Assembly: GCA_030615565.1 (NCBI GenBank)
Contig: JAUWZC010000001.1
Location: forward strand, 1-37,272
Source: Desulfobacteraceae bacterium
GTDB taxonomy: Bacteria; Desulfobacterota; DSM-4660; Desulfatiglandales; B25-G16
Length of the DNA: 37,272 nucleotides
Direction: 5' to 3'
In this document: positions 7,072 to 28,964 of the stretch, in pieces
Layout of the letters: every line of letters starts with the position of its first letter
How positions within the stretch are numbered: the stretch's first letter is position 1
Position numbers and translations under genes: made by a program
Notes under the pieces: model-generated
Database searches by the model: none
Seen by the model: only the letters and a program-made list of their open reading frames with translations
Told to the model about the DNA's origin: nothing

Positions 7072-7075
7072 ATAA

Positions 7076-7663
7076 ATGTCTCTCTGCAAATTGGTCTTAC
7101 CTGTTACACTTATTGTTATACTTTTTTCCACCTCTTCTTTAAAATATGCAGGGGCAGATATCTATCGATTCAAGGATGAAAACGGGGTCTGGCATTTCAC
7201 CAACATTCGATCAGACACACGCTATCGTCTTTATATAAAGACAGGAAGATTAAGGGGAAAGCAATATATTACAAATTATGATACTATAATTCAGAGGGCA
7301 GCAAAACAATTCGGTGTGGACTCCCACCTTATAAAGGCCATTATCATGACGGAATCATCTTTCGATCCCAATGCGATCTCTAAAAGTGGGGCTCAAGGCC
7401 TGATGCAACTGATGCCACCCACTGCAAACGATATGGAGGTAAATAATCCCTTTGATCCAGAAGAAAATATTTTTGGCGGTACAAGATATCTTAGCTTACT
7501 TCTCAAAAAGTTTAAACAGGATAAAAAATTAGCTATAGCTGCCTATAATATTGGTCCTTCAGTTGTGTCTAACCACAATTCTGTCCCTCTTATACCTCAG
7601 ACCAGGCGCTTCGTTGAGAAGGTTATGAGATATTATAGGGAATTTAAAAAACATGGGAATTAA
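7076..7663 (+). CDS. Exported lytic transglycosylase (DUF4124-like N-terminal region plus SLT domain)
   Basis: 195-aa ORF with a signal-peptide-like N-terminus, IYRFKDENGVWHFTN, the catalytic ESSFDPNAIS motif, GAQGLMQLMP and AAYNIGP. Confidence 0.8.
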   Translation: MSLCKLVLPVTLIVILFSTSSLKYAGADIYRFKDENGVWHFTNIRSDTRYRLYIKTGRLRGKQYITNYDTIIQRAAKQFGVDSHLIKAIIMTESSFDPNAISKSGAQGLMQLMPPTANDMEVNNPFDPEENIFGGTRYLSLLLKKFKQDKKLAIAAYNIGPSVVSNHNSVPLIPQTRRFVEKVMRYYREFKKHGN

Positions 7664-7674
7664 GGCCTTTAATT

Positions 7675-8232
7675 ATGAAAAAAAATCAAGGCCAAATAAA
7701 TAATCTGCCAAATACTCTAAGTGTTATTAGGCTGGTTTTAATTCCGGTAATTGTTATATGCCTGTATTTTCCTGGAAGATTGGGGAGTTTCTTAGCTGCT
7801 CTCTTTTTCGGGCTGGCCGCTATAACAGATCTTCTGGATGGTTTCTATGCCCGGAGACACAAAAAAATTACCTCACTGGGCAAATTTCTTGATCCCTTAG
7901 CCGACAAATTACTGATCTCGGCAACTATGATCATGCTCATAACCCTGAACAGGATCCCTGTCTGGGTTGTTATTTTAATTATTGCAAGGGAAATGGCAGT
8001 AACAGGGTTAAGGGGTATTGCTGTGGTAGAAGGTATAGTTATTGAGGCAAGTTCCCTTGGAAAATACAAAACAATATTTCAGTTAGTTTCCCTCATATGT
8101 CTCTCACTGCACTACGAGTATTTAGGAGTCGATTTCCATATAGTTGGAATGACCTTTCTTTGGGTTGCTTTGATACTAACTATGTGGTCTGGATGGTCAT
8201 ACTTTCGAATGACCAAAAAGATACTATCCTAA
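7675..8232 (+). CDS. pgsA: CDP-diacylglycerol--glycerol-3-phosphate 3-phosphatidyltransferase
   Basis: 185-aa polytopic membrane ORF carrying the CDP-alcohol phosphotransferase motif DLLDGFYARRHKKITSLGKFLDPLADK. Confidence 0.92.
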   Translation: MKKNQGQINNLPNTLSVIRLVLIPVIVICLYFPGRLGSFLAALFFGLAAITDLLDGFYARRHKKITSLGKFLDPLADKLLISATMIMLITLNRIPVWVVILIIAREMAVTGLRGIAVVEGIVIEASSLGKYKTIFQLVSLICLSLHYEYLGVDFHIVGMTFLWVALILTMWSGWSYFRMTKKILS

Positions 8233-8280
8233 AAAACCTTGACATTTTTTTTAAGAAGTAGTAGGGAATTTTAAAAAATA

Positions 8281-8356
8281 GCGGGAATAGCTCAGTTGGT
8301 AGAGCATCACGTTGCCAACGTGACGGTCGCCGGTTCAAGCCCGGTTTCCCGCTCCA
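8281..8356 (+). tRNA. tRNA-Gly (anticodon GCC), CCA encoded
   Basis: The acceptor GCGGGAA pairs with TTCCCGC. The D-loop is AGCTCAGTTGGTAGAGC. The anticodon stem is TCACG/CGTGA with loop TTGCCAA. The T-loop is GGTTCAAGCCC. Confidence 0.92.
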
Positions 8357-8362
8357 AAAAAG

Positions 8363-8438
8363 GGCGGCATAGCCAAGTGGCTAAGGCAGCGGTCTGCAAA
8401 ACCGTTTTACACCGGTTCGAATCCGGTTGCCGCCTCCA
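8363..8438 (+). tRNA. tRNA-Cys (anticodon GCA), CCA encoded
   Basis: The acceptor GGCGGCA pairs with TGCCGCC. The anticodon loop is CTGCAAA and the T-loop is GGTTCGAATCC. It lies 6 nt after tRNA-Gly. Confidence 0.9.
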
Positions 8439-8459
8439 ATAAAAACTAGAATACAATTT

Positions 8460-9368
8460 ATGGCCTCTAAAAAATCCACCATCTTATTCCTTCCGAGAGG
8501 ATCAAACACAGTAAGAAAAATTAATGTCTCTCGTAGCGTAACCTCCATTATTGTCTTTCTTATCTTTATGATGGTTCTCGGTGTCAGCTGGCTTATTAAT
8601 GATTACAGAAAGATAAAAACCCAAATACCAGAATTAAATTATCTAAAAAAAGAAAACGAAATTCAAAAGACCCAAATCATTGCCTTAAGTAAAAAGATTA
8701 ATAAAATCAATCAAAACATGGTCAAGCTTCAAGAATTTGAGCGTAAGCTAAGGGTCATGACCAACTTAGAGCCATCTGAGAAACAAGATCAATTATTTGC
8801 GATTGGGGGCTCAAATATTATTACCCTTAAATCAAATTATCAGCTGGAGGAAGTCCATAAGGGGTTAATTCAACAAATGCATAAATCTTTGGAAGACTTA
8901 CAAACAAGGACAGCTATAGCCTCCATATCCCAAACAGAATTAAATGATTTTTTAAAAGAACAGAAATCTATTCTGGCTTGCACACCATCTATCAGGCCAA
9001 CAGATGGCTGGTTTTCTTCTGGATTTGGTTACAGGATCTCTCCCTTTACAAATCAAAGGGAATTTCACAAAGGAATCGACATAGCAACCAGGATCGGGGT
9101 ACCTGTAATTGCCCCAGCCGATGGATTAGTTGTATTTGTGGGTAGAGAAGGTAACTTCGGAAAGATGATTTCTATTAATCATGGATATAATTTAAAAACA
9201 AGGTACGGACATCTGAATAAATTCCGAATAAAAAAAGGGCAACATGTTAAAAGAGGTCAAATTATAGGAGAGGTTGGAAAAAGTGGCCGATGCACAGGTC
9301 CTCACCTCCACTATGAAGTACTTCTCAATGGTGTCCCTGTAAACCCCCTCCGTTACATACTAAACTGA
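8460..9368 (+). CDS. M23 family metallopeptidase with N-terminal TM anchor and coiled coil (EnvC/LytM-like)
   Basis: The start is moved to MASKKSTILF because the 8427 start lies inside tRNA-Cys. The M23 metal ligands HKGIDIA (HxxxD) and GPHLHYEV (HxH) are intact. Confidence 0.85.
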   Translation: MASKKSTILFLPRGSNTVRKINVSRSVTSIIVFLIFMMVLGVSWLINDYRKIKTQIPELNYLKKENEIQKTQIIALSKKINKINQNMVKLQEFERKLRVMTNLEPSEKQDQLFAIGGSNIITLKSNYQLEEVHKGLIQQMHKSLEDLQTRTAIASISQTELNDFLKEQKSILACTPSIRPTDGWFSSGFGYRISPFTNQREFHKGIDIATRIGVPVIAPADGLVVFVGREGNFGKMISINHGYNLKTRYGHLNKFRIKKGQHVKRGQIIGEVGKSGRCTGPHLHYEVLLNGVPVNPLRYILN

Positions 9369-14977: not shown

Positions 14978-15334
14978 GTGGGAAAAGTACCCAAAATAAT
15001 TATAGTAATAGTAATAAGCCTTTTTCTTGTAGCCTTCTTTTTAGGTATATACATAACAATTGATGAAAAAATACCCAACAATGCAGTAGTTGTTGTAACA
15101 TTGGAAGATAAACTCTGTCATTCTATTCACTTTGATTATATTTGCGTTGCTCGCAAAACAGCCAAGACAATGGTCTGTTCTGAGGCAAAGGAGAAGGGTT
15201 TCAAATTAAACTCCCATTGTCAAAATCTTGGCTATTTTAGGGGTAACAGACTTTTTCTTTACCAATATATCCTCTCAAAGTTTGGGATACAATATAACAG
15301 CCGCTGGGATATGAACGGCAACTGGCTATGGTGA
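14978..15334 (+). CDS. Hypothetical single-pass membrane protein with 4 Cys in the extracytoplasmic part
   Basis: 118-aa ORF with a GTG start, an N-terminal TM helix IIIVIVISLFLVAFFLGIYI and no recognisable family. The RBS is weak and a 330-nt AT-rich spacer precedes it. Confidence 0.4.
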   Translation: MGKVPKIIIVIVISLFLVAFFLGIYITIDEKIPNNAVVVVTLEDKLCHSIHFDYICVARKTAKTMVCSEAKEKGFKLNSHCQNLGYFRGNRLFLYQYILSKFGIQYNSRWDMNGNWLW

Positions 15335-15494: not shown

Positions 15495-16262
15495 ATGCAA
15501 TTTGCATTCTTTGGAACATCCGATATAGGCCGTCATCGTAAATATAACGAAGATAGTTATCTTTGTAATCCAAAAGAAAAATTATTTCTGATTGCAGACG
15601 GAATAGGTGGGCAAGCCGCTGGTGAAATAGCCAGCAAGCTTGCGATTAGAAACATAGAAGAATTTGTTGTTCGATCACATTCAGAAGATATAACCTGGCC
15701 TATACCTTACAGACAGGAGTTTACGTTAGATCAAAACAGTCTCCTTGCTGGAACCACTCTGGCCAACCGCAAGGTACGCGAGCTTGCAAATCAGAATCCT
15801 TCAATGAAAGGGATGGGGACAACCCTTGTTGGGGTCATTATTAAAGGAAATCTACTAGCTATTTTAAATATAGGAGATAGTCGATTATATAGGATTAGGG
15901 GTGGTGAGATAGAGCAAATCACCCAGGACCACACTGTGGCGGGAGAACAGGAAAAGCTGGGACTCCTGACTAAAGAAGAGGCCTCTAATCATCCCCAGAA
16001 ACATATTCTTACGAGTGCCCTTGGGATTGAAGTTATGGAAAATCTTAGAATAGACCTTTCCCTTGTTGATATACTTAAAAAAGATCTATACCTTATGTGT
16101 TCCGATGGATTGAATGATATGCTTAGTGATAAAGAAATACTGGCAATAATTAACTCTGATGAAAACAGGTCCCTTGAAAAGATTAGCCTTTCATTGATTC
16201 AACAGGCCAATCTTGCTGGGGGGCGAGACAATATAACTATTATTCTGCTATCTTTTTATTAA
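15495..16262 (+). CDS. PP2C-family Ser/Thr protein phosphatase
   Basis: 255-aa ORF with NEDSYL, ADGIGGQAAGEIAS, GMGTTLVG, GDSRLYR, CSDGLNDML and GGRDNITIILL, the canonical PPM motifs. Confidence 0.88.
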   Translation: MQFAFFGTSDIGRHRKYNEDSYLCNPKEKLFLIADGIGGQAAGEIASKLAIRNIEEFVVRSHSEDITWPIPYRQEFTLDQNSLLAGTTLANRKVRELANQNPSMKGMGTTLVGVIIKGNLLAILNIGDSRLYRIRGGEIEQITQDHTVAGEQEKLGLLTKEEASNHPQKHILTSALGIEVMENLRIDLSLVDILKKDLYLMCSDGLNDMLSDKEILAIINSDENRSLEKISLSLIQQANLAGGRDNITIILLSFY

Positions 16263-16281: not shown

Positions 16282-17934
16282 ATGCCAAGCTTAGATATCA
16301 CAACCTATGGTGGCCGAAGGTATAGCCTTCAAATCAAAAAAGAAAAAATTACCATAGGCAGAAGTCCCGACAACAATCTTATCCTTTCTGAAAAAAGCAT
16401 CTCCCGTCACCATGCTGAGATAAAAAAAATGAAAGACGGCTACCTTCTAGCCGACCTCGGAAGTTATAATGGTACAAAGGTCAATGAAAAGTCGATTCAG
16501 GGCGTCCTCCTAAAACACAACGATAAAATAAAAATCGGCCTAACAAGCCTGATCTTCCTGGCCAGAAAAAAGGATGAATTATCCCTCGAGGACCCCCTTG
16601 TCCTAACCATAGATAGTGATTATGAAAAAGAGCATAAAGAGGTACTAAAAAGCCTCTCAGATAGTGGTGCTATTGACTCTAAGGAGCTGTTAGTTTCTTT
16701 AGAAGCTATGAAAACCCCAAAAGAAGCTGCTATTTCTGCCCTTCCAGAAGAGACTCAGGCTGAATTAGAGAGAAGGAACAAGGTGCTCTTTGTGCTTTAC
16801 GAAATCAGTCGCCAGTTAAACACCATCCATGATTTTAGAGAACTCCTGAAAATAATAATGGATCTTATCTTTATGGTAATTAGTGCTGATTACGGTTTTT
16901 TGGTTCTTATTGGAGATGGAACAGAAGATCAACTCATTCCGGTGGTAGTCAAATATAGAAGCAACCAAGAAAAAAATAAGAGGAAATTAAAGGCTAGCCA
17001 AACCTTAATTCATAAAGTAATACATGGTAAAGTTGCTATATTAACATCAAACGCTATGGCCGATTCTCGATTTGATGGTGCCAAAAGCCTCTTTATCCAG
17101 AAAATCAGATCAGCTATTTGTGTGCCACTTTGGAGAAAAGACAAAATTATTGGTGTTATTCAACTCGACAGTATAAGATTTGATAACCAATTTAACCAGG
17201 ATGATCTCGAGCTACTTAAGGCCATTGGAAGTCAGATGGCCATGATAATTGAACAGGCCAGTCTTAATGAGCAGATAAGGGAAGAAGAGATAATGAGAAG
17301 CCGTCTAGAGAGATTTCACTCTCCCCAGGTAATTGAAATGATCTTAAAAGGAAGTCAAGAGACCAAAGATAACGTGATGGAGCCAAAGGATCTAACAGCC
17401 ACTATACTCTTTACAGATATTATTGACTTTACCCAGCTCGCGGAACGAATTTCTCCTCGAGAAACAAATATAGTTCTGAATCAATATTTTTCAACAATGA
17501 CAGATATTGTCTTCAGCTACGATGGCACCCTTGATAAGTATATAGGCGATGGACTGATGGCTGTTTTTGGAGCCCCAATGGAAAGAGAAGACGATGCGGA
17601 AAGGGCAATTCTGGCTGCCAAAGAAATGAAAAGCCAACTGGCAGTAATGATGACCGAAAAAGGAGGCCATAGAAAAAAATTTGATATACGGATAGGAATA
17701 AATACCGGGAGGGTGGTTGCCGGAAATATTGGTTCTCCCAAGCGGATGGACTACACCGTTATAGGAGACCCAGTCAATACTGCCTCAAGATTAGAATCAA
17801 TTGCCAAGCCGAATCAGATTCTTATAGGAGAGGAAACATACAGGGCTGTGAAAGATAAATTCAAAATAAGAAAAATTGGTCCAAAAAAGGTTAAAGGAAA
17901 AAGAGCGGATATTATGGTTTATGAAATTATTTAG
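16282..17934 (+). CDS. FHA - GAF - class III adenylate/guanylate cyclase
   Basis: 550-aa ORF. The FHA domain has ITIGRSPDNNLILSEKSISRHHAEI..GSYNGTKVN. A GAF-like central region follows. The cyclase domain has ATILFTDIIDFT, GDGLMAVFGAP, IGINTGRVVAGNIGS and YTVIGDPVNTASRLES. Confidence 0.88.
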   Translation: MPSLDITTYGGRRYSLQIKKEKITIGRSPDNNLILSEKSISRHHAEIKKMKDGYLLADLGSYNGTKVNEKSIQGVLLKHNDKIKIGLTSLIFLARKKDELSLEDPLVLTIDSDYEKEHKEVLKSLSDSGAIDSKELLVSLEAMKTPKEAAISALPEETQAELERRNKVLFVLYEISRQLNTIHDFRELLKIIMDLIFMVISADYGFLVLIGDGTEDQLIPVVVKYRSNQEKNKRKLKASQTLIHKVIHGKVAILTSNAMADSRFDGAKSLFIQKIRSAICVPLWRKDKIIGVIQLDSIRFDNQFNQDDLELLKAIGSQMAMIIEQASLNEQIREEEIMRSRLERFHSPQVIEMILKGSQETKDNVMEPKDLTATILFTDIIDFTQLAERISPRETNIVLNQYFSTMTDIVFSYDGTLDKYIGDGLMAVFGAPMEREDDAERAILAAKEMKSQLAVMMTEKGGHRKKFDIRIGINTGRVVAGNIGSPKRMDYTVIGDPVNTASRLESIAKPNQILIGEETYRAVKDKFKIRKIGPKKVKGKRADIMVYEII

Positions 17935-17962: not shown

Positions 17963-18046
17963 TTATTCCTTCTTAAGATCCTCTATGTCCTTTTTAAGGC
18001 CTTTGACCTCTTCCTTTAGCTCACTTGTATCAAGTTCTTCATCAAA
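17963..18046 (-). repeat. Shared C-terminal tail module, copy 1 (inverted relative to 28878-28964)
   Basis: It encodes FDEELDTSELKEEVKGLKKDIEDLKKE*. By hand alignment, 64 of 81 aligned nt and 19 of 27 residues are identical to the tail of the 28698-28964 ORF. Confidence 0.8.
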
Positions 18047-19558
18047 TTTCTCTATATCTTTTTTTCGAATATAGGTAGCAATGTTTTTTCTTAATAAGGC
18101 ATATTCATCATTCATGCTTTTTAGCTTTTCCTTGGCATCTATTGCCTCTCGCTCTAATTCCTTCATTCTCAATGCAAGATCGGTTATATCTATATTGACA
18201 ACTACACATTCCTTGGATTTCCCATCGATGCTCTGAACAGGATAGACCCTTGCCAGAACATGCACGGGTTCCCCCTGAGCCGAATAATATTTCCATTCTT
18301 CTCCATTAAATGATTCCCCTTTAAAGACCCTTATTATTGTTTCTCTAAATGGTCGTCTTGTAGATTTTGAAACAAAGGTCAAAGGGTTGTTTCCAATCAT
18401 CTTAGAGGAAGGGTAACCAAAATTTTCTTCACACGCCTTATTCCAGAAGCTAATCTTACCTTTAGAGTCTATCTTATAAATAGCATTCGATGGCGATCCA
18501 ACTGCCTGGCCACGATTATCATATACGCTATAAGTTTCCCCTTGCACATTAGTAACATCCTGCATTATTTGTATAGCCCCTTTAATTGATCCATTGATGT
18601 CAAGAATCGGGGCAACTGCTACAATTGCCTGAATACCCTCTTTTATGTCAGGAAGAGGAACACCCACCTCAAAGAACCCGCTATCTGTCTTTGATACGAT
18701 TGAGCCGGAAAATTTATCTATTATAGTATCTGGGTCCTCTATCATAATATCAGCTAGACTCCGTTGCCTATCAACGCATAAAGAGGCAGGAACCTTCTTT
18801 CCAATTATTTCCTCTGTAGGTACACCTGTCATCTGCTGGCATGCACGATTCCACTGAATCACCCTATGTTCTACATCCACTACAAAGGTAGGGAGAGGAG
18901 ATTTCTCGACAAGAGTGTCAATGTAGTTCTTTGACTCTACAAGGGTCCTGGATCTGACCTGTTCTCTGTCGAGGACATCAGTCTTTTCCTTTTCATACAT
19001 GAAGGCAATTAAAAGAATAACCAAAAGGCCCGATAAATATGCGCCCAGGGAATAAATAGGTGAAATATCAGGGGGTATGAGATTTGGAAACTTGTAACCG
19101 CTCCTAAATAGATAAACTGCAACACCCGTTTCAAAAAATATTAAAGTCCCCCAGATAGTTCCCCATAGATATCCTGTAATGAAAACAGCCATAAGGATAA
19201 GGACAGCATTCCATATCCAGGATAAAAGGATTAAACCTCCTTCGCTCATTGCCCCAGTATTCCACCTAGTAATCAAAAAAGTAGCCCATAGGACAAAAAA
19301 GGCATAATTTCCAGCTACAATAAGATTTTTGGTCAGCCTTAGAAGAATCAGGGCCGAGATCGCTAATATACCGGCACCAATGGTAGTATAAAAGAGAAGA
19401 TCTGCCTTGATGTTAAAATAAAACAGGCCAAGGAAAAGGGAAAGAAGAATAAGGATACATAGAAATGTATTGAGGGATTTAAATTTCGTTATTCTTTCTA
19501 AATCCGGAGATTTTATTCCACACGTAATAAAATTGTTAAATAGAGATTTGAGGCTCAT
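17963..19558 (-). CDS. Polytopic membrane protein with two PAS domains and a C-terminal coiled coil, no recognisable output domain
   Basis: 531-aa ORF. About 6-7 hydrophobic helices occupy residues 25-190. Two PAS-like repeats follow (..VIQWNRACQQMTGVPTEEIIGK.. and ..ISFWNKACEENFGYPSSKMIGN..). A heptad-rich tail ends in DTSELKEEVKGLKKDIEDLKKE. There are no HisKA/HATPase, GGDEF, EAL or MCP motifs. Confidence 0.75.
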   Translation of the reverse strand: MSLKSLFNNFITCGIKSPDLERITKFKSLNTFLCILILLSLFLGLFYFNIKADLLFYTTIGAGILAISALILLRLTKNLIVAGNYAFFVLWATFLITRWNTGAMSEGGLILLSWIWNAVLILMAVFITGYLWGTIWGTLIFFETGVAVYLFRSGYKFPNLIPPDISPIYSLGAYLSGLLVILLIAFMYEKEKTDVLDREQVRSRTLVESKNYIDTLVEKSPLPTFVVDVEHRVIQWNRACQQMTGVPTEEIIGKKVPASLCVDRQRSLADIMIEDPDTIIDKFSGSIVSKTDSGFFEVGVPLPDIKEGIQAIVAVAPILDINGSIKGAIQIMQDVTNVQGETYSVYDNRGQAVGSPSNAIYKIDSKGKISFWNKACEENFGYPSSKMIGNNPLTFVSKSTRRPFRETIIRVFKGESFNGEEWKYYSAQGEPVHVLARVYPVQSIDGKSKECVVVNIDITDLALRMKELEREAIDAKEKLKSMNDEYALLRKNIATYIRKKDIEKFDEELDTSELKEEVKGLKKDIEDLKKE

Positions 19559-19701: not shown

Positions 19702-20145
19702 TTAAAATATCGTAATCTTCCCTTCACGGTCGACAATTCCATTTATTTCCTTAACCCCGTCTTTAAAAAGGTTGAAAGAGGCCGAGATGGTAACTTGACA
19801 AAAGCCATCAGCCGTTGCTGGAAAGGTTTGAATTTGAAAGTTGAGATTGTGACCGACGGGAATAGGGACATTGAGTGCATCTTTGACATCTTGTATCTCT
19901 TGCTTGGTAGGAGGATCATTCTTAAATATATCTATACTTGTACCATCTTCTGGAAAAAATTTTTCATTCTCCAGAAAATACATGATCTCGGCATCAAGAA
20001 TCCTTTTTAGCATAAGAGCAGCCTCAGATCCATAGGCCCTCTGTTGATATATATTTAAGATTGGCATTGCTGTGGCACCTAAAATTCCCAAAATGGCAAC
20101 CACAACCATTAACTCAATAAGCGTAAAACCAGCATGTCTTCTCAT
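19702..20145 (-). CDS. Type IV pilin / pseudopilin-like protein with class III (prepilin) signal
   Basis: 147-aa ORF. MRRHAG|FTLIELMVVVAILGILGATAMP has Gly at -1, Phe at +1 and Glu at +5, followed by a hydrophobic alpha1-N helix. An AGGAG RBS lies inside the 3' end of the upstream gene. Confidence 0.8.
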   Translation of the reverse strand: MRRHAGFTLIELMVVVAILGILGATAMPILNIYQQRAYGSEAALMLKRILDAEIMYFLENEKFFPEDGTSIDIFKNDPPTKQEIQDVKDALNVPIPVGHNLNFQIQTFPATADGFCQVTISASFNLFKDGVKEINGIVDREGKITIF

Positions 20146-20150
20146 TTCAT

Positions 20151-20747
20151 TTAGGCTCCTCCGCTCGATGGCCGGGTATACTCAATACCTTTTGGTGATA
20201 GAATAACATTCATCTCCCCTGCCTTAGGATTTGCCACAGACAAGCGGTAGCCTGCCTCGGGATCCCTCTGATAAGATAATTTCTCCAAATGAAAAAGTTC
20301 ATCCTTTCTTAATGATAGATATTTAGGAACAAGATTGGATAGTTTTTCAGGGTATTTATCTCCTTCATAATGTGCATAACGCTTGATAGCCCCATCAACC
20401 ATAAACAATAGTACCCTTCCCTTTTTAGCAAAATCAATCTTTCTGGGAGGTGCAGGCTGACCACCAAAGATAATTACTCCCCACATCACCAGGATCAACA
20501 TAGATGAAATAATGACAAAATACTGAAAGGGACCCTTTTTTTTCTTTTTTTTATCTTCCTTCTCTGTAAGCTTTCCCTGCTTGTCTTTTATAGATGTACC
20601 GACTTCAGAGACAGAGTGAAGCATGGCACACTGAAAACAGTAATATTCGCCAGATCTCGACTCTTCACCGCATTCCTTGCACAGTGGCGCATTACAACTT
20701 GCACAAAAAAATTCTGCTTCCCTCTTAGGGTGATATTTACACTTCAT
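20151..20747 (-). CDS. Zinc-finger (B-box-like) / single TM / GspG-like periplasmic domain protein
   Basis: 198-aa ORF. The N-terminus CKYHPKREAEFFCASCNAPLCKEC..CFQC is followed by a KKKKKK linker and a TM helix FQYFVIISSMLILVMWGVIIFGG. The C-terminal AIKRYAHYEGDKYPEKLSNLVPKYLS resembles the T2SS major-pseudopilin globular domain. Confidence 0.6.
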   Translation of the reverse strand: MKCKYHPKREAEFFCASCNAPLCKECGEESRSGEYYCFQCAMLHSVSEVGTSIKDKQGKLTEKEDKKKKKKGPFQYFVIISSMLILVMWGVIIFGGQPAPPRKIDFAKKGRVLLFMVDGAIKRYAHYEGDKYPEKLSNLVPKYLSLRKDELFHLEKLSYQRDPEAGYRLSVANPKAGEMNVILSPKGIEYTRPSSGGA

Positions 20748-20863
20748 GAAAATTCCTCTTCTAAATAAGGCATATTTTTTATAGCTATTATTTTAAGGTA
20801 AAGGTAAGAAAAGATAAAGGAATAGTCAAGAAATAAATCTTTTTAGGTATGTTGAGCAAATTT

Positions 20864-22789
20864 TTAACTTTCAGGCTTCAAGCTATTTCCACAATAAGGA
20901 CAGGCAACCCAATCTGGCTGTACTATCCGCTTGCAAGAAGTACAGGTAGGAATTATAGGTTTTTTGCAATAGGGGCAGTCCTTGAAATCTAAGCTAACGG
21001 TTTTTCCACAATGAGGGCAAATGGTGGTCAATTCCTCCTTTTCGTGTACCGCTTTCAGTACCTCTTCTATGGTTGTTATTCCCATTTCTATCTTTTTCAT
21101 TCCACTAATCCCGAGGGTGGTCATCCCCATTGCCATGGCTGCTTCCCTCAAAGTATCGGCCGTTGCAGAGGACTGAATGAGTTCTCTTATTTTAGGACCA
21201 ATAATCATCATCTCTTCAATAGCCGTTCGCCCTCTGAAACCAGTATTATTGCAATTAGGGCACCCTGCCCCCCTGTAGAATTTAAAGGGAAGATCATTTT
21301 GATCCAGATTTAGTCTGGCCAGGGAATCTTGAGCAGGCAAATACTCCTCCCTACAATCCTCACATATGGTTCTTACCAGCCGTTGTGCAACAATTCCAAC
21401 TACAGAAGAAGCAATAAGATATGGCGGGATACCTATATCTATGAGACGAGTAACTGCCGCAGGAGCATCGTTTGTATGGAGGGTTGAAAGAACCAGATGT
21501 CCAGTCATGGAGGCCTGAACAGCTATCTCAGCCGTCTCTTCATCTCTTATCTCACCTATCATAATCACATTGGGATCCTGTCTTAAAATCGAGCGCAGAA
21601 TAAAGGGAAATGAAAGGCCAACCTTCTCGTTTATCTGTACCTGGTTGACACCAGACAACTCATATTCTACAGGATCCTCAACAGAAATGATATTTACCTC
21701 TTCCGACTTTATCTCCCGCATACATGCATAAAGGGTTGAGGTTTTTCCACTTCCTGTAGGGCCTGTAATCAAAACCATGCCCTGGGGACGATGGATAAAA
21801 TTCGTTATTATTTTCAGATTCTTCTGGCTTAATCCAAGTTGATCCACTGAGAGAAATGCTTCTTCTTTGTTCAAGATTCTTATAACAGCCTTTTCACCAT
21901 AATAAGTAGGAAGTGTCGATACTCTCAGATCTACAGATACATTTTTTGCCTTTACCTTTATCCTCCCATCCTGGGGAAGCCTCCTCTCTGCTATATTCAA
22001 ACCCGCCAATACCTTTATGCGCGAGATAATAATAGGTTGAGTCCATTTCGGGAGCTTGATAGAATCCTTTAGTACACCATCAATGCGATTTCTAACTCTT
22101 ACATGATTTTCCTGTGCCTCAATATGAACATCACTTGATCCACTCTTAATAGCATTCCTGATTATAAGATCAACCATTTTTATAAAAGGTGAATCCTTGA
22201 AAGATTCAAAATCCGCTTCTTCATCCACTTTCTTTTCTTCTTCGGGAAGAAACTCCATGAGGCCAGTATCTTCCACAAATTCATCAGCAACGTCCCTAAT
22301 TGTTCTTTCCGGATGGTAGTGTCTTTGAAGCTTGTCTATTATCTGGCTTCGTGTAGAAATAGCCGGCTGGATATTGTAACCAGTTATAAACTGGAGATCT
22401 TTCATTATATTCAGATCAAGAGGATCAGCCATGGCAACATCAAGTATATTATTTTTCATAGATAGAGGAACACATACAAACTTCTGACAAACCTCCTCAG
22501 GTAGACAGTCAATAACTTCATTTTTAATAGAATAGTCTATAAGATCAATGAAGGGAATCTTAAGTTGCATAGCCAGAGCAAAGGCCATTTCCTCTTCTGA
22601 AATGATCTTCATATCAATTAGGGCCTCGCCTAATCTTTTCCCAGTTTCCTTCTGAACCTCTAAAGCATCCTTTAGTTTATCAATAGTTAAAAGACCTGAT
22701 TCTATTAATAATTCTCCTAATTTACGTCGGGAGACAAAATTATCCTTATGTGTTTTATTCTTGGTTTGAATTGAGGCAGTATCTGCCAT
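20864..22789 (-). CDS. GspE/PilB-family type IV filament assembly ATPase with MshEN-type N-domain and C-terminal double zinc ribbon
   Basis: 641-aa ORF with Walker A GPTGSGKTS, Walker B VIMIGEIRD, His box LSTLHTND and the tetracysteine CEDC..CPNC. The N-terminus reads KLGELLIESGLLTIDKLKDALEVQ-KETGK-RLGEALIDMKIISEEEMAFALAMQ. An extra tail reads CPHC..CPYC..CTSC..CPYC. Confidence 0.92.
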   Translation of the reverse strand: MADTASIQTKNKTHKDNFVSRRKLGELLIESGLLTIDKLKDALEVQKETGKRLGEALIDMKIISEEEMAFALAMQLKIPFIDLIDYSIKNEVIDCLPEEVCQKFVCVPLSMKNNILDVAMADPLDLNIMKDLQFITGYNIQPAISTRSQIIDKLQRHYHPERTIRDVADEFVEDTGLMEFLPEEEKKVDEEADFESFKDSPFIKMVDLIIRNAIKSGSSDVHIEAQENHVRVRNRIDGVLKDSIKLPKWTQPIIISRIKVLAGLNIAERRLPQDGRIKVKAKNVSVDLRVSTLPTYYGEKAVIRILNKEEAFLSVDQLGLSQKNLKIITNFIHRPQGMVLITGPTGSGKTSTLYACMREIKSEEVNIISVEDPVEYELSGVNQVQINEKVGLSFPFILRSILRQDPNVIMIGEIRDEETAEIAVQASMTGHLVLSTLHTNDAPAAVTRLIDIGIPPYLIASSVVGIVAQRLVRTICEDCREEYLPAQDSLARLNLDQNDLPFKFYRGAGCPNCNNTGFRGRTAIEEMMIIGPKIRELIQSSATADTLREAAMAMGMTTLGISGMKKIEMGITTIEEVLKAVHEKEELTTICPHCGKTVSLDFKDCPYCKKPIIPTCTSCKRIVQPDWVACPYCGNSLKPES

Positions 22790-23056: not shown

Positions 23057-25573
23057 ATGAACGAAAGCGACAAAAAAACAAATTTGCTTATAGGCTCACT
23101 CATAGTGGTCATTTGTATTTACCTGTCTTTTATGAGCTTTCCCTTTTTTGAGTCACTTGAAAAGGTAATTTACGAGATCGAAATGCGGCTCGATACACCC
23201 CGTAACCCTGGTGAAAGCAAAGTAGCTATTGTAAATATTGATGATAAAAGTATCAATAAACTTGGCAAATGGCCCTGGCCAAGGCATATCATAGCTGAGA
23301 TGATCAAAATCTTAAAAAGTAATGGGGCAAAGCTTATTGGCATAGAGATGGTCTTTAGCGAAAAAGAACAAAATCTAGGCATCGAAGAGATAAAAAAACT
23401 TTACTCTAAAATCCTGAATCGAGAAAAAGTTTACACCACAGGAGAAAAACACACATGGATACTTGCTGAGTTGGAGGAGATTGAAAAACGCCTGGATAAC
23501 GATAAAGTCCTATCACAAACAGTGAAAAATACTGGAAATATAATCCTTCCAGTTATTGGCGAATTTGGAAAATATAGAACTGAATTAATAATTGCACCTG
23601 AATCATTCCTGAATATCAGCACATTGAAAAAAGATAGCATTAATATTGAAGACCAAACACCTGTCAAAGAATTAACTACTCCGTTTAATGAGCTATCAAA
23701 AAGCAGTCATGCTCTAGGACACACAAACCTATCCCCTAATAAACTAAGGGTGGGCCAAGTCCATATACCTTTTATCAATTATAGAGGACATATAATACCC
23801 TCTATGCCTTTACGTCTTGCCCTTGACTACCTAAATAAGCATCCTGAACAGGTAATAATTAAAGGGTCTGGAATTAAACTCGGAGAAGAAATTATTCCAA
23901 CCAGCAAGGGGGAAATGCTCATCAAATTTAAAGGTGGAAGACGATCCTTTCCATATTATTCATTTATAGATATCTTAAATGTTAAAAAGGTCCCAGCTGT
24001 ATTTGATGGCAAAATTGTCCTCATTGGCTTTACAGCCAAAGGAAGTGCTTCGGTTAACACACCGGTAGACCCTTATATGCCACAGGTAGAATTTATGGCC
24101 AACGTAATCGATGATTTTTTACATGGACGTTTTCTTAAACGCTCAAATGTAATGCTATATCTGGAGGTCTTTATCTTAGTGCTACTTGGACTGGCATCCT
24201 CATTCTTCCAATCCCGTTTCAGTTATTTAAACCGAACCGCATTCACAGCCGGGTTGATCTTTCTTGTCTTTTTAACCAGTGCCACCTTTTTTATATCATT
24301 TGATATATGGTTTAAAAGCATTTATATCCTTCTCTCTCTGACAACTATCTATGTTGTAATTATGGGAAAAGACTTTCTATATATTCACAAGACCGGTTTA
24401 TCAAAGGAGGCTATAGAAACTAACCGAATGCTTGGTATTAGCCTTCAAAGCCAGGGGTTGCTTGATCTGGCCTTTGAAAAATTCAGAAAATGTCCTCTCG
24501 ACGATGAACTGAGGGATGTTATCTACAATCTTGGGCTTGATTACGAACGAAAGAGAATGATTAATAAGGCTATTTCTATCTATGAATACATTAACAAGAA
24601 AGACAAAGGTTTTAGGGACTTAACTGAACGTATACCAAAATTAAAAAAGGTGATCAGTTCTCTACCATTAGGTGCCTATCAAGGAAAAAAGGAAGATAAA
24701 ATAGTTGTTTCAGATGACCTAGAAGTTAAGCCCACTGTCGGAAGATACGAAATACTAATGGAGTTGGGTCGGGGGGCAATGGGTACTGTTTACAAAGGGA
24801 GAGATCCTAAAATCAATCGCCTCTTGGCAATTAAGACAATCCGTTTCTCAGATGAATTTGAAGATGATCAGCTAAAGGAGATAAAAGAGCGCTTCTTTAC
24901 AGAGGCCGAGTTAGCAGGAAAACTCTCACACCCCGGAATCGTTGCCATACACGATATAGGAGAAGACTATGATCTTACTTATATGGCCATGGAATTCTTA
25001 GACGGGGAGGACCTAGAGAAATACTGTAAGAAAGGATCGCTCCTTCCAATTAGAAAACTACTAGATATTATAGCTGAAACAGCAGATGCCTTAGAATATG
25101 CACACAACAATGGTGTAATTCACAGGGATATAAAACCAGCAAATATAATGCTATTAAAAAATGGCAGAGTAAAGGTAACTGATTTTGGGATAGCAAAGTC
25201 AATGTCTGCCTCAAAAACCAGAAGTGGAATAATACTCGGTACACCTAACTATATGGCACCAGAACAGATTATGGGTCGCCAGATAGACGCTCGATCGGAT
25301 ATATTCTCTCTGGGTGTTGTGTTCTTTCAGCTCCTAACAGGAGATTTGCCATTCCGTGGGGACAACCTGAACAGCCTTTTTTACAAAGTTACCCAAGTTA
25401 AGCATCCCTCACCTAGTAAAATAAATCCAAAGGTTATAAAACCGTGTGAGCAGATACTTGATAAAGCATTAGCTAAAAACCCGGATCATAGATTTCAGAA
25501 GGCTAGTGATCTTGCTAAGTATTTAAGAATTTTGGCTAATAAAATTGATACCCTGAGGGTGAAAAAAAAATAA
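23057..25573 (+). CDS. CHASE2 sensor - TM - TPR-like - Hanks-type Ser/Thr protein kinase
   Basis: 838-aa ORF. After an N-terminal TM helix comes the CHASE2 hallmark VAIVNIDDKSINKLGKWPWPRH, then three TM helices around residues 365-440. The kinase motifs are GRGAMGTVYKG, AIK, HRDIKPANIML, DFGIAK and GTPNYMAPE. Confidence 0.88.
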   Translation: MNESDKKTNLLIGSLIVVICIYLSFMSFPFFESLEKVIYEIEMRLDTPRNPGESKVAIVNIDDKSINKLGKWPWPRHIIAEMIKILKSNGAKLIGIEMVFSEKEQNLGIEEIKKLYSKILNREKVYTTGEKHTWILAELEEIEKRLDNDKVLSQTVKNTGNIILPVIGEFGKYRTELIIAPESFLNISTLKKDSINIEDQTPVKELTTPFNELSKSSHALGHTNLSPNKLRVGQVHIPFINYRGHIIPSMPLRLALDYLNKHPEQVIIKGSGIKLGEEIIPTSKGEMLIKFKGGRRSFPYYSFIDILNVKKVPAVFDGKIVLIGFTAKGSASVNTPVDPYMPQVEFMANVIDDFLHGRFLKRSNVMLYLEVFILVLLGLASSFFQSRFSYLNRTAFTAGLIFLVFLTSATFFISFDIWFKSIYILLSLTTIYVVIMGKDFLYIHKTGLSKEAIETNRMLGISLQSQGLLDLAFEKFRKCPLDDELRDVIYNLGLDYERKRMINKAISIYEYINKKDKGFRDLTERIPKLKKVISSLPLGAYQGKKEDKIVVSDDLEVKPTVGRYEILMELGRGAMGTVYKGRDPKINRLLAIKTIRFSDEFEDDQLKEIKERFFTEAELAGKLSHPGIVAIHDIGEDYDLTYMAMEFLDGEDLEKYCKKGSLLPIRKLLDIIAETADALEYAHNNGVIHRDIKPANIMLLKNGRVKVTDFGIAKSMSASKTRSGIILGTPNYMAPEQIMGRQIDARSDIFSLGVVFFQLLTGDLPFRGDNLNSLFYKVTQVKHPSPSKINPKVIKPCEQILDKALAKNPDHRFQKASDLAKYLRILANKIDTLRVKKK

Positions 25574-25608: not shown

Positions 25609-26436
25609 TTGAAAATCACAGCTGCTGGACTTTCTGATGTTGGCCTTAAGAGGGAAAGTAACGAGGATTACCTTACGATAGACAATTCTACTGGATTATA
25701 TATAGTGGCTGATGGTATGGGAGGGCATCAGGCTGGAGAGGTTGCCAGCAGGGTTGCCGTACAGATAATCCAGAAAAACGTTAACAATTGGATAACTAAG
25801 AACAGTCCTATGGTTGACTTATTCGACTTTCCGGACATGACCCTGAGCCAAAGAGGTAATTATATATCAAGTAGCATAAAATTAGCTAACAGGGTTATTT
25901 ATGAAATGTCTCAAGAATATACAGAATACAAGGGCATGGGGACAACGATTGTAATCTTGGCAATAATGCCCTCTACTATAATTGCAGCTAACGTGGGCGA
26001 TAGCAGGATCTATCTTATAAGAGGAGATACAATGGAACCTCTTTCTAAGGAACATAGCATGGTAGCCGAACAGTTAGAGATGGGTCTGATATCTGAGGAA
26101 GAAGCAAAAATTTCTCCTTTAAGACATATACTTACGAGGAATCTGGGTTCAACAGGTATAGTTGATGCAGATGTTTTCGAAATTGAGCACATAAATAATG
26201 ACCGTTTTTTACTCTGCACTGATGGGCTGACAGATCTTGTATCAGACGATGAGATACTAAGCATTATCAAAAATGGAAATGACCCTGATTATATCTGTCA
26301 GCAACTCGTTTCTGAAGCTAATAAGAGGGGTGGTTATGATAATATCACTGTCTCTTTGATATGTTTAAATGAACAAAATGATGAAAAGCAGGGAATCATA
26401 AGAAGATTTGGAACCTTTTTAAAAAATAAAAAATGA
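25609..26436 (+). CDS. PP2C-family Ser/Thr protein phosphatase (second copy)
   Basis: 275-aa ORF with a TTG start 5 nt after AAGGAG. Motifs are NEDYL, ADGMGGHQAGEVAS, GMGTTIV, GDSRIYLIR, CTDGLTDLV and GGYDNITVSLI. Confidence 0.88.
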   Translation: MKITAAGLSDVGLKRESNEDYLTIDNSTGLYIVADGMGGHQAGEVASRVAVQIIQKNVNNWITKNSPMVDLFDFPDMTLSQRGNYISSSIKLANRVIYEMSQEYTEYKGMGTTIVILAIMPSTIIAANVGDSRIYLIRGDTMEPLSKEHSMVAEQLEMGLISEEEAKISPLRHILTRNLGSTGIVDADVFEIEHINNDRFLLCTDGLTDLVSDDEILSIIKNGNDPDYICQQLVSEANKRGGYDNITVSLICLNEQNDEKQGIIRRFGTFLKNKK

Positions 26437-26477: not shown

Positions 26478-27200
26478 ATGGCACGGGTTATATTAGTATT
26501 TAATAAAAAAGTGATTAAAGAGTATCCTTTTGCCAAAGATAGCATGACCATCGGGCGGGATGAAGTAAATGATATTGTAATCGATAATCTGGCGGTATCC
26601 GGTCACCATGCTAGGATAGACAAAACCGGAGATACCTATATCCTTACCGACTTACAAAGTACAAACGGAACCTTTGTTAATGATAAGAAAATTACCTCTC
26701 ATAAATTGCTGCATAAGGATAAAGTAATTATTGGCAAACATCTCCTTTTCTTTGCTATGTCAAAGCAGGAACAAGCCAAAGCTAAAGATGGAGAGCTTGA
26801 TAAGACCATGATCCTTGACACAGCCAGGCAAAAGGAGCTATTAGAGAAACAGGCTGAAAAAAAGGCCATGGCTGTACCCGCTCAAAAAGGTAAACTTGGT
26901 ATCATAACCTTCATCGACGGTTCCGGTGAAGGCGAAATTCAACTGACGAAAAAACTAACCAAGATAGGCAAAGCTGAAACGTCGGAAATAAGGCTCGGTG
27001 GTGTGTTCATGCCTCCTACAGCAGCTACTATCAGTCGCAGACCAAATGGTTATGCTATTTCATCCACTGGTGGGAGAACAAAGGTAAAAGTAAATGATCA
27101 GGTGATAAAAGAAAGCCATTACCTGAAGGATTTTGATACAATTGAAATAGGATCATACAAATTCCAATTCTATAGCCAGGATAGTAAAGATGCAAAATAA
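26478..27200 (+). CDS. Double FHA-domain protein (canonical N-terminal FHA plus degenerate C-terminal FHA-like domain)
   Basis: 240-aa ORF. The N-terminal domain has MTIGRDEVNDIVIDNLAVSGHHARI..LQSTNGTFVND. The C-terminal part reads TKIGKAETSEIRL..ATISRRPNGYAISS..KVKVNDQVI. Confidence 0.8.
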   Translation: MARVILVFNKKVIKEYPFAKDSMTIGRDEVNDIVIDNLAVSGHHARIDKTGDTYILTDLQSTNGTFVNDKKITSHKLLHKDKVIIGKHLLFFAMSKQEQAKAKDGELDKTMILDTARQKELLEKQAEKKAMAVPAQKGKLGIITFIDGSGEGEIQLTKKLTKIGKAETSEIRLGGVFMPPTAATISRRPNGYAISSTGGRTKVKVNDQVIKESHYLKDFDTIEIGSYKFQFYSQDSKDAK

Positions 27201-28164
27201 AATAAGTAGAAAAAATAGAGTAAAAATAAATATACTTTATTTAATTATTGCTATCCTTCTTTCTTCCCCTTTTTATTTAGAGGCATCTGAAAGGCAATCT
27301 ATCAAGGTTAAAGCAGATGACTCGATAAGTTTCCTTAGCTTCAAAATTTATGGCAGATTCCACCCTGAAATGCTTAAACAATTCTCAAAAATTAATCCCC
27401 ATGTTAAAGATTGGAATAATCTTACTGTAGGAACAGAAATAAAATTTCTAACCGAAAAAGAAATGAATAGCATTATTCCAGAGCAAAAAAAAGAAGTGAT
27501 AATTATAACCTTTTTGAAACATCCAGTAAAAATTAAAAAGGGTGCCAAAGGTCCTCATAAAAGAGCTCTATTAAATATGATCCTTGATTCAAAAGATTGT
27601 ATAGAGGTAAGAAGTGGTGGCAGCGTAGAATTAATGATGAGCTATGGAAGGGTCATCAGGCTAAATGAGGGCTCAACCTTAAAAATTGGTACCTTAAAGA
27701 GGGATGAGAAAAAAAAATCAGTTGTAGGAAAATTCAAACTCTTTCTTGGAAGGCTCTGGGGAAAGGTATTAAAGGCTCGATCTTATAGAAAAAAAGAGAT
27801 GTACGTGTCCACGCCAACACTCGTAGCTGGTGTCAGAGGGACAGCATATGACCTAAAATTAAAGCGTGACCAGTCCACAATCATCAAGGTTTTTGAAGGA
27901 GAGGTTGAAATATATAATCCTTTACAAAAAATGCCCGAATCCGGAGTTATTAAGGATTTTAAAAAACCACATAGGGTTAAAGGCCCCCACAGAATCACCG
28001 AAAAAGAATGGAATGAGATCCTTCTCAGGCAATACCAACAAGTAATTGTTACAAAAGAGGGCATTAGCGAACCTATTATATTCGACTACGAAAAGGAAAG
28101 GCAAACTGAATGGATAAAATGGAATGAAGAGAGGGATCTAAGATTAAGTGAAAGGGAGACCTAA
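27190..28164 (+). CDS. Exported LysM-like / FecR-domain protein
   Basis: 324-aa ORF overlapping the FHA gene stop by 11 nt. It has a signal or anchor helix ILYLIIAILLSSPFYL and a LysM-like segment IKVKADDSISFLSFKIYG..NNLTVGTEIKF. The FecR-like beta region reads IRLNEGSTLKI..VAGVRGTAYDL..VFEGEVEIYN. Confidence 0.65.
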   Translation: MQNKISRKNRVKINILYLIIAILLSSPFYLEASERQSIKVKADDSISFLSFKIYGRFHPEMLKQFSKINPHVKDWNNLTVGTEIKFLTEKEMNSIIPEQKKEVIIITFLKHPVKIKKGAKGPHKRALLNMILDSKDCIEVRSGGSVELMMSYGRVIRLNEGSTLKIGTLKRDEKKKSVVGKFKLFLGRLWGKVLKARSYRKKEMYVSTPTLVAGVRGTAYDLKLKRDQSTIIKVFEGEVEIYNPLQKMPESGVIKDFKKPHRVKGPHRITEKEWNEILLRQYQQVIVTKEGISEPIIFDYEKERQTEWIKWNEERDLRLSERET

Positions 28165-28697: not shown

Positions 28698-28964
28698 ATG
28701 GCGGCTTTAATTGGTGGCTTGGTATCTTTGGTTTTGGGGGTTATAGGAATTATTATCTTTTGGGGATATTTTGTTAAGGCCTTAGCAGCTGGAATACCTG
28801 CTCTACTTATCTTGGGTGGTGCCTTAGCCACATATCTTGGCATTGAAGAATGGAAAGATAAAAAAAGTGCCCAGAATTTCACCGAAGAACCTGATACAAG
28901 CAAGCTAAAGGAAGAGGTAGAAAGTCTGAAAAAAGAGGTAGAGGATCTTAAAAAAGAAGAATAA
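28698..28964 (+). CDS. Small two-TM hairpin membrane protein with charged coiled-coil tail
   Basis: 88-aa ORF with a GGAGGG RBS (28689-28694). It has two Gly/Ala-rich helices (LIGGLVSLVLGVIGIIIFWGYF and AAGIPALLILGGALATYLGI) and the tail EEPDTSKLKEEVESLKKEVEDLKKEE. Confidence 0.6.
   Translation: MAALIGGLVSLVLGVIGIIIFWGYFVKALAAGIPALLILGGALATYLGIEEWKDKKSAQNFTEEPDTSKLKEEVESLKKEVEDLKKEE
28878..28964 (+). repeat. Shared C-terminal tail module, copy 2 (inverted relative to 17963-18046)
   Basis: It encodes FTEEPDTSKLKEEVESLKKEVEDLKKEE*. It contains the 15-nt identical run GCTAAAGGAAGAGGT and a second run, GAAGAAC-(C/T)-TGATACAAG, identical to copy 1 except at that one position. Confidence 0.8.

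Follow-up and report, generated by a model that had tools for sequence, protein, structure and literature searches.

A Conserved ATPase–Adaptor–Pilin Module Among Signaling Genes of Uncultured Desulfobacterota

Organization of the Locus

The stretch of DNA analyzed here (the window) comprises 37,272 nucleotides (nt) of contig JAUWZC010000001.1 from the Desulfobacteraceae bacterium assembly GCA_030615565.1, and is a chromosomal piece of an uncultured, Desulfatiglandales-like member of the Desulfobacterota. Three co-oriented genes on its minus strand, between positions 19702 and 22789, form the core of a type IV filament-like module. They encode a 641-amino acid (aa) extension ATPase of the PilB/MshE type (20864–22789; Pfam, NCBIfam, and PDB matches), a 198-aa bitopic membrane protein with a B-box zinc finger and a single transmembrane (TM) segment, here termed the adaptor (20151–20747; Pfam, TM prediction, and AlphaFold2 [AF2]), and a 147-aa class III (type IV) prepilin (19702–20145; Pfam N_methyl and NCBIfam). 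An initial annotation had recognized the three open reading frames (ORFs) as an ATPase, a zinc-finger membrane protein, and a prepilin, and all are found where it had placed them. It had also noted the tight junction between the last two genes, which is confirmed in both respects: the adaptor stop codon (20153–20151) and the pilin ATG at 20145 are separated by 5 nt, and the ribosome-binding site of the pilin gene, the Shine–Dalgarno sequence GGAGGAG (20156–20162, minus strand), lies within the last codons of the adaptor gene.

Conservation of the Module

Homologues of the adaptor number 542 at E ≤ 1e-3, and those with a source name come from metagenome-assembled genomes (MAGs) of Desulfobacterota. 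A scan of one genome per species yielded 61 loci found via the adaptor; the counts given here leave out loci whose sequence does not extend far enough on the side in question. The pilin gene lies directly downstream of the adaptor gene at 54 of 56 loci and the ATPase gene directly upstream at 46 of 52, and about 50 species-level genomes of Desulfobacterota carry the triad, including the complete MAG chromosomes CP070704.1, CP070673.1, and CP070657.1. Related genomes thus conserve the triad as a real unit, so that the initial idea withstands the first of its own two checks, and this unit is part of a larger one than was first described. All module genes are under purifying selection, with ratios of nonsynonymous to synonymous substitution (dN/dS) of 0.10–0.37. 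The full module is also present at two of three loci found independently via pilin homologues, the third being an orphan pilin (see section The Pilin and Its Coupling to the Adaptor Gene).

The order that is held consists of a divergent CHASE2 kinase gene, the ATPase, adaptor, pilin, and PAS protein genes, and a convergent set encoding an FHA–GAF–cyclase, in part of the loci a PP2C phosphatase, and a 118-aa protein. Among the 61 species-level loci, this order persists where the outer housekeeping flanks differ. The CHASE2 kinase gene is found at 36 of 42 loci, the PAS membrane protein gene downstream of the pilin gene at 42 of 46, the FHA–GAF–cyclase gene at 30 of 41, and the gene for the 118-aa protein at 33 of 34; the PP2C, FHA, and FecR genes downstream of the CHASE2 kinase gene are conserved in closer relatives only. 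The initial description of an operon of three genes and nothing else thus has to be abandoned, since the PAS membrane protein, CHASE2 kinase, FHA–GAF–cyclase, and 118-aa protein are co-conserved with the triad. Two loci that carry the module at 62–65% identity bear MAG labels of other groups, Anaerolineales (L027) and Bacteroidales (L065). Both are low-coverage contigs (1.4–1.8x), for which mis-binning is more probable than an occurrence of this Desulfobacterota-type module in another phylum.

Absence of Other Machine Components

Pilin, prepilin peptidase, ATPase, and platform are the four core proteins of every type IV filament system (Pelicic, 2023; PMC10191384). Of these, the window encodes only the pilin and the ATPase. 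Pfam scans of 29 of its 31 ORFs of at least 110 aa (the two left out lie antisense inside annotated genes), together with phmmer searches, bear out the earlier impression that it carries no T2SSF, Peptidase_A24, secretin, or PilMNO/GspLM gene and no further pilin gene. The phmmer searches, with Escherichia coli K-12 HofC, GspF, GspO, GspD, GspC, GspL, GspM, and GspH–K as queries and ORFs of at least 60 aa as targets, gave no match in 66 loci and the window. The same search with HofB/GspE returned one ATPase per locus, and with PpdD/GspG one pilin per locus. No platform or peptidase gene is present in nine metagenome loci of distant relatives, and no platform appears in the precomputed Pfam lists of 10 further loci. 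Across about 85 loci, with flanks of up to 10 kb, no platform, prepilin peptidase, or secretin gene lies within 10 kb at any of them. None of these loci sits inside a complete type IV pilus (T4P) or type II secretion system (T2SS) locus either, so the initial idea also withstands its second check, which would have shown the triad to be a fragment.

The ATPase

The ATPase matches Pfam T2SSE (E = 3e-132, 441 bits), MshEN (2e-23), and, at the C terminus, the double zinc ribbon DZR (4e-08), which spans residues 591–634. Tandem MshEN motifs occupy residues 23–75 and pass the motif model NF053729 (62.3 bits vs. a cut-off of 38); they are of the 24-residue type RLGxxLLxxGLLxxxxLxxALxxQ, are kept in orthologues, and are predicted to bind cyclic di-GMP (c-di-GMP). 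The closest solved structures are Thermus PilF (7.7e-158) and the PilB proteins of Geobacter and Myxococcus (about 1e-146), with 490–530 bits over nearly the full length (residues 19–584). The protein falls below the NCBIfam equivalog cut-offs for both PilB (609.8 vs. 675.65 bits) and GspE (582.8 vs. 630.25 bits), and thus appears to be a diverged paralogue without an equivalog orthologue call.

The catalytic apparatus is intact throughout the family. The Walker A and B motifs, Asp box, His box, tetracysteine site, both MshEN motifs, and all eight DZR cysteines are kept in 51 orthologues, with the conserved motifs GPTGSGKT, VEDPVE, VIMIGEIRD, TGHLVLSTLHT, and C..C...C..C. With 610 bits for the PilB equivalog and 490–530 bits against solved PilB/PilF proteins, the ATPase is a PilB-type extension motor, and nothing points to a degenerate or purely regulatory protein.

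The Zinc-Finger Adaptor

The adaptor consists, from the N terminus, of a B-box (residues 1–40), a helix, a poly-Lys run, one TM segment (residues 74–95, with the hydrophobic stretch at 77–95), and an outer domain (residues 105–192). Its linker contains the conserved sequence SVSEVGTS. The B-box matches zf-B_box (PF00643) with 28.9 bits against a gathering cut-off of 24.1, and its putative zinc ligands (Cys3, His6, Cys15, Cys18, Cys23, Cys26, Cys37, and Cys40) are invariant in 55 sequences and spaced as in a cross-brace, which predicts a metal site. Because the single TM segment follows the poly-Lys run, the B-box is most readily placed in the cytoplasm and the last ~100 residues in the periplasm. 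AF2 models of moderate confidence (pLDDT 74–76) contain the B-box, a cytoplasmic helix, the TM helix, a long helix, and then four β strands. The adaptor has no class III signal peptide and no Glu at position 5 (E5): its N terminus is the B-box and helix, and its TM segment, which starts with PFQYFVII, has no Glu. Since a folded cytoplasmic domain of ~70 aa takes the place of a leader, the adaptor could not leave the membrane or be extruded into a filament.

The outer domain had been described as GspG-like, a description for which the comparisons give weak support. It does not match Pfam T2SSG even at E ≤ 1, and it has no Pfam, NCBIfam, or PDB counterpart; against PDB sequences, the adaptor family gives weak matches to TRIM-type B-boxes only and none for the periplasmic domain. 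Foldseek searches of the PDB with full-length and TM-plus-periplasmic AF2 models gave nothing significant; the top of the list is made up of pilins, headed by Thermus PilA5 and Neisseria PilX (E = 0.3–0.7, TM-score ≤ 0.44). With hhalign, alignments of closely related adaptors and pilins did not match, and diverse alignments of the adaptor and its partner pilin family gave E = 0.05 over 89 in-register columns. A profile of the TM and periplasmic part, searched against 1.84e9 protein representatives, reached 51 cluster representatives only. The weakest of these matches include T2SSG-carrying proteins (E = 6e-5 and 7e-4 library-wide), which align via the helix motif A-x-x-x-Y-A-x-x-x-G-x-Y-P-x-x-L-x-x-L-x-P-x-Y-L. 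In addition, the YP motif lies 60 residues from where the TM segment starts in the adaptor and 59 in the neighboring pilin. A pseudopilin-like origin of the outer domain is therefore no more than plausible. A related GspG-like motif, ALExYAxDNxGxYPxxLxxLxPxYL, occurs in 2–5 tandem copies in six other proteins (P0272, P0281, P0283, P0286, P0290, and P0291), one of which (P0272) also has a Ser/Thr kinase domain fused at its N terminus.

The Pilin and Its Coupling to the Adaptor Gene

The pilin matches N_methyl (8e-10, 38.3 bits vs. a cut-off of 21.2), and the NCBIfam GspG model aligns with its residues 6–88 (E = 4.7e-10). It has a short, basic leader with the processing site MRRHAG/FTLIEL (MRRHAG/FTLIELMVVVAILGIL), followed by a hydrophobic α1N helix, and lacks a disulfide pair. 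In 40 homologues, Gly-1, Phe1, Thr2, and Glu5 are invariant, and Gly14 and Pro22 are conserved. In type IV pilins, E5 is needed for assembly and not for cleavage, and E5, G14, and P22 matter for polymerization rather than membrane insertion. The invariance of E5 thus argues that the pilin polymerizes, and the invariant cleavage site implies that a prepilin peptidase is required. As no peptidase gene lies within 10 kb at any locus examined, the enzyme must act in trans; on the sequence evidence, action in trans is certain for at least this one core part.

Between close relatives, the pilin gene has a dN of 0.24–0.36 and a dS of 0.8–1.6, compared with a dN of 0.04–0.15 and a dS mostly of 0.4–0.6 for its neighbors (up to 1.0 for the adaptor gene in two comparisons). 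The dN of the pilin gene is thus 3–6 times that of the neighboring genes and its dS is raised, which suggests allelic replacement or diversifying selection limited to this gene. Such rapid change would fit a surface-exposed subunit. The distance from the adaptor stop to the pilin start is between −4 and +5 nt at 50 of 57 loci, and the two genes are translationally coupled. A lone pilin homologue (57% identical; L086, 7001–7444) occurs without adaptor or ATPase, in surroundings of type I restriction-modification, LexA-like repressor, DnaB helicase, and HTH_17 genes that probably represent a mobile element.

Adaptor–Pilin Pairs and Distant Clades

Adaptor and pilin pairs without an ATPase gene occur in unrelated contexts, and the pair is the tightest unit and evolutionary core of the module. 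Three pair-only copies are second copies in genomes that have a full module as well (L013 with L014 in CP070704.1, L062 with L011, and L063 with L021), and other loci, L004 and L030 among them, have no adjoining ATPase gene. The second copies lie in housekeeping surroundings (SelB/AFOR, SMC/LysM, and MauE/rhodanese for L013, L062, and L063).

In distant relatives, the cytoplasmic head of the adaptor is swapped. P0266 combines FHA and cyclic nucleotide monophosphate (cNMP)-binding domains with the TM segment and the outer domain, and P0275 adds PilZ. A prepilin gene directly follows the adaptor gene in metagenome loci with FHA/cNMP heads (L070–L073) as well as in those with B-box heads (L074–L076). 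At one locus (L069), a soluble FHA–cNMP paralogue is encoded divergently upstream of the adaptor relative. Two further arrangements retain a B-box adaptor: type B encodes a TPR protein, a response regulator (RR)–GGDEF protein, an 870–885-aa MshEN–T2SSE ATPase, the adaptor, a pilin (MKKG/FTIIEV), and an RR–TPR protein, and type C encodes an MshEN–T2SSE–cNMP-binding ATPase, a GAF protein, the adaptor, and the pilin, with a second such ATPase nearby. These cNMP-tailed PilB-like ATPases are encoded at 6529–8784 and 14766–17012 of L080 and at 5309–7558 of L084, and two such paralogues flank one adaptor–pilin pair. The theme that stays constant in gene content is a PilB-like motor together with a bitopic adaptor and a single pilin, always with phospho-Thr, cyclic-nucleotide, and c-di-GMP modules attached or adjacent and always with platform and peptidase absent.

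The module ATPases of the three clades were not found to be monophyletic: the window ATPase scores 438–457 bits against those of the other clades and 490–530 bits against canonical PilB/PilF. As they do not form one exclusive clade, PilB paralogues were recruited repeatedly or diverged long ago. A specific pairing of DZR with the adaptor B-box is likewise unsupported, as type B and C adaptors have B-boxes and their ATPases lack DZR.

Signaling Neighbors and Other Features of the Window

The gene downstream of the pilin gene (17963–19558, minus strand; Pfam) encodes a polytopic membrane protein with ~5–6 TM segments in residues 30–190, two PAS domains, and a charged C-terminal tail, but no kinase output domain. 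By its position, it belongs to the same transcription unit as the triad. On the opposite flank, the plus-strand gene for the CHASE2-sensor Ser/Thr protein kinase (23057–25573) diverges from the ATPase gene and is followed on the same strand by genes for a PP2C phosphatase (25609–26436), an FHA protein (26478–27200), and a FecR-domain protein (27190–28164). Beyond the PAS membrane protein gene and convergent with it, the plus strand encodes the FHA–GAF–class III nucleotidyl cyclase (16282–17934), a second PP2C phosphatase that is present in many, not all, loci (15495–16262), and the 118-aa protein, which has an N-terminal TM segment and four Cys residues and no family match (14978–15334). Ser/Thr signaling genes thus flank the triad on both sides, as first proposed, with PP2C and FHA–GAF–cyclase on one side and CHASE2 kinase, PP2C, FHA, and FecR on the other. 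At E ≤ 1, Pfam assigns no family to the membrane part of the PAS protein or to the 118-aa protein.

A nearly identical 24-residue C-terminal tail, (E)EPDTSxLKEEVxxLKKxxEDLKKE, is shared by the PAS membrane protein (17963–18040) and an 88-aa membrane protein encoded 9 kb away on the plus strand (28698–28964), and is kept in orthologues of both. Its D-T-S-x-L element could be a putative phospho-Thr/FHA docking site for the neighboring kinase and FHA proteins. In some orthologues, Ile replaces the Thr.

The region of interest is surrounded by the housekeeping genes dnaX, lysA, dapB, secA, argJ, ndk, and ETF-QO. A scan for σ70 promoters and terminators gave no more sites than expected from shuffled sequence, and the σ54 promoter pattern was absent from the relevant intergenic regions and no more frequent than expected by chance. 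An Rfam scan for c-di-GMP or other riboswitches returned four tRNAs only: tRNA-Gly and tRNA-Cys in tandem near 8363–8438 and two tRNA-Ser genes at 35–455. The listed TTG start of an M23 peptidase ORF (8427–9368) overlaps tRNA-Cys (in the 8363–8438 region), and its true start is probably further downstream.

Relation to Known Systems

Both the ATPase and the pilin belong to known families, and the adaptor represents a small, previously undescribed family. No description of the module was found in the open-access literature, within a limited searchable corpus. With PilB, Thermus PilF, and MshE, the window ATPase has in common the T2SSE core, the tetracysteine zinc site, and the N-terminal MshEN motifs, but it differs by its conserved C-terminal double zinc ribbon and by having no adjoining pilC, pilD, or pilT gene. 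The Com pilus is likewise built from a small gene set around one ATPase and one or more pilins. Com loci, however, include a gene for the platform ComGB, and the peptidase ComC is encoded either there or at another site, whereas the module has neither within 10 kb.

In its predicted topology (cytoplasmic N-terminal domain, one TM segment, and periplasmic domain), the adaptor resembles GspL, BfpC/TcpR, and PilM–PilN, and its gene sits between those of the ATPase and the pilin. A linker role analogous to that of GspL, BfpC, or PilM–PilN is plausible on this likeness. However, the adaptor has no sequence similarity to GspL or GspM (no phmmer match at any locus), and the GspL type has an actin-like head and a ferredoxin-like periplasmic domain where the adaptor has a B-box and a pilin-like-looking domain. 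With GspG (T2SSG), the adaptor shares the helix motif, the TM-to-YP spacing, and the succession of a long helix and four strands, but it lacks the class III signal peptide, E5, a direct T2SSG match, and a significant Foldseek match.

Control by second messengers or FHA proteins is also found in the Xanthomonas FimX–PilZ–PilB system and in Sulfolobus, where ArnA/ArnB act on the archaellum. The Tad-like Kil system of Myxococcus xanthus has an FHA-fused ATPase, and a precedent for FHA/kinase control exists there and in the type VI secretion system (T6SS) (PMC8460266). As in T6SS PpkA–Fha1–PppA and Kil, a Hanks-type kinase, PP2C, and FHA are clustered in the module with a secretion or filament ATPase, and, as in other machines controlled by phospho-Thr or second messengers, some components carry c-di-GMP and cNMP modules. 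Unlike in T6SS and Kil, the signaling domains of the module are attached to, or swapped onto, the membrane protein that partners the pilin.

Proposed Function and Alternative Explanations

We favor, at somewhat better than even odds, the explanation that the module is a non-autonomous branch of a type IVa-like pilus system and is gated by signals. The locus would supply a fully competent PilB/MshE-type motor with c-di-GMP motifs, a fast-evolving pilin in which all residues required for cleavage and polymerization are kept, and the new bitopic adaptor, and the pilin would be cleaved by a prepilin peptidase (a distal PilD) encoded elsewhere. In the inner membrane, the TM segment and periplasmic domain of the adaptor may pair with the pilin, so that the adaptor holds or presents it, and the head of the adaptor may link the pilin to the motor or to signals from the cytoplasm. 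Candidate inputs are phospho-Thr (CHASE2 kinase, PP2C, and FHA), a cyclic nucleotide (FHA–GAF–cyclase), and c-di-GMP (ATPase). The ATPase would then drive incorporation of the pilin by way of a platform of the PilC type; this platform, and any conduit across the outer membrane, would come from another locus. The gene and domain content, conservation, coupling, head swapping, and nearby absence of platform and peptidase described above are observed, and the supply of parts in trans, the binding of adaptor to pilin, and the direction of signaling are inferred.

Drawing on other loci has parallels. Different systems often have one peptidase in common, and genes of type IVa pili are spread over several loci (Denise et al.; PMC6668835). 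The module would draw its peptidase from another locus, and probably its platform too. Three points weigh against such a borrowing branch. The absence of a platform gene within 10 kb at about 85 loci, spanning several deep clades, is unusual; pilB and pilC are adjacent in many systems. For the adaptor, a pilin-like fold is no more than a possibility. The clade-specific C-terminal extensions of the ATPases (double zinc ribbon, cNMP-binding domain, or ~250 aa of unassigned sequence) could mean a different coupling partner.

An alternative is an autonomous platform-less filament or piston, in which the adaptor, possibly with the PAS membrane protein, replaces PilC/GspF, as the initial annotation had suggested for the zinc-finger protein. 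The uncleaved, pilin-like adaptor would then be a permanent basal subunit. Its head, whether zinc finger or FHA/cNMP/PilZ, would dock on the PilB-type hexamer and in this way pass ATPase motion and second-messenger or phospho-Thr signals directly to the first membrane pilin. A platform is needed because the processed pilin has no cytoplasmic part to touch the ATPase (Pelicic, 2023; PMC10191384), and the adaptor, unlike a processed pilin, has such a part. The lack of a T2SSF homologue within 10 kb at about 85 loci of at least three deep clades, the unusual ATPase extensions, and a polytopic membrane protein co-conserved in the operon are also consistent with this arrangement. However, no evidence was found that the zinc-finger protein replaces the platform: pair-only copies and loci L004 and L030 exist without an adjoining ATPase, and the pilin cleavage site already demands a peptidase from elsewhere, so borrowed parts are better supported than platform replacement. 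Moreover, a protein with one TM helix differs from the platform, which is a trimer with three TM segments and two domains, the ATPase is close to a canonical PilB, B-box heads show no specific co-occurrence with DZR, and the PAS membrane protein is missing from types B and C. We therefore consider a platform-less machine decidedly unlikely. The density and conservation of the signaling context raise another, unlikely, prospect, that the module is a membrane signaling device and not a filament, with pilin and adaptor forming an inner-membrane sensor or transducer and the ATPase acting mainly as a c-di-GMP-binding regulator that feeds the Ser/Thr-kinase and cyclic-nucleotide network. The heads of adaptor relatives are classic signal-binding modules (FHA, cNMP-binding, and PilZ), and a signaling role of PilB has a precedent in the one proposed for the control of exopolysaccharide in M. 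xanthus (PMC5544727). This is difficult to reconcile with the invariance of all ATPase catalytic motifs, with the retention of E5, G14, and P22 in the pilin, and with a pilin divergence that suggests surface exposure. FHA, cNMP-binding, and PilZ are also input domains, which argues for control from the inside to the outside.

A decayed T4P/T2SS fragment, or an anti-phage defense island with a T2SSE ATPase, would account for a locus without core type IV filament genes and for the PADLOC matches of the kinase (PD-T4-6) and the cyclase (PycC). Yet these matches concern generic kinase and cyclase domains, the ATPase gives a marginal P-loop match only, and PADLOC has no meaningful match for the adaptor, pilin, PAS protein, or 118-aa protein. 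Every gene is under purifying selection, the ORFs are intact in about 50 species, and the module occupies a fixed site between housekeeping genes (SecA–ArgJ–epimerase and NDK–ETF-QO) rather than a variable island. The conservation data already contradict this most improbable of the explanations, and a pilus branch that borrows its missing parts remains the one that we prefer.

Implications

The least understood of the four core type IV filament proteins is the platform. If the genomes that carry the module truly lack one, the rule of four core proteins would be overturned, and the module would allow the movement of a pilin by an ATPase to be studied in a minimal system. The generic type IV filament (TFF) model requires an ATPase, a platform, and a pilin (Denise et al.; PMC6668835). 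Because the locus has no platform gene, the module would not meet this model, and type IV censuses built on it would probably miss such modules. The adaptor would be a new type of partner, a pilin-coupled membrane protein with interchangeable cytoplasmic signal-reading heads. At the least, the module would represent a new way for Ser/Thr kinases, cyclic nucleotides, and c-di-GMP to control a specific pilin in its hosts, which are abundant uncultured Desulfobacterota of sediments.

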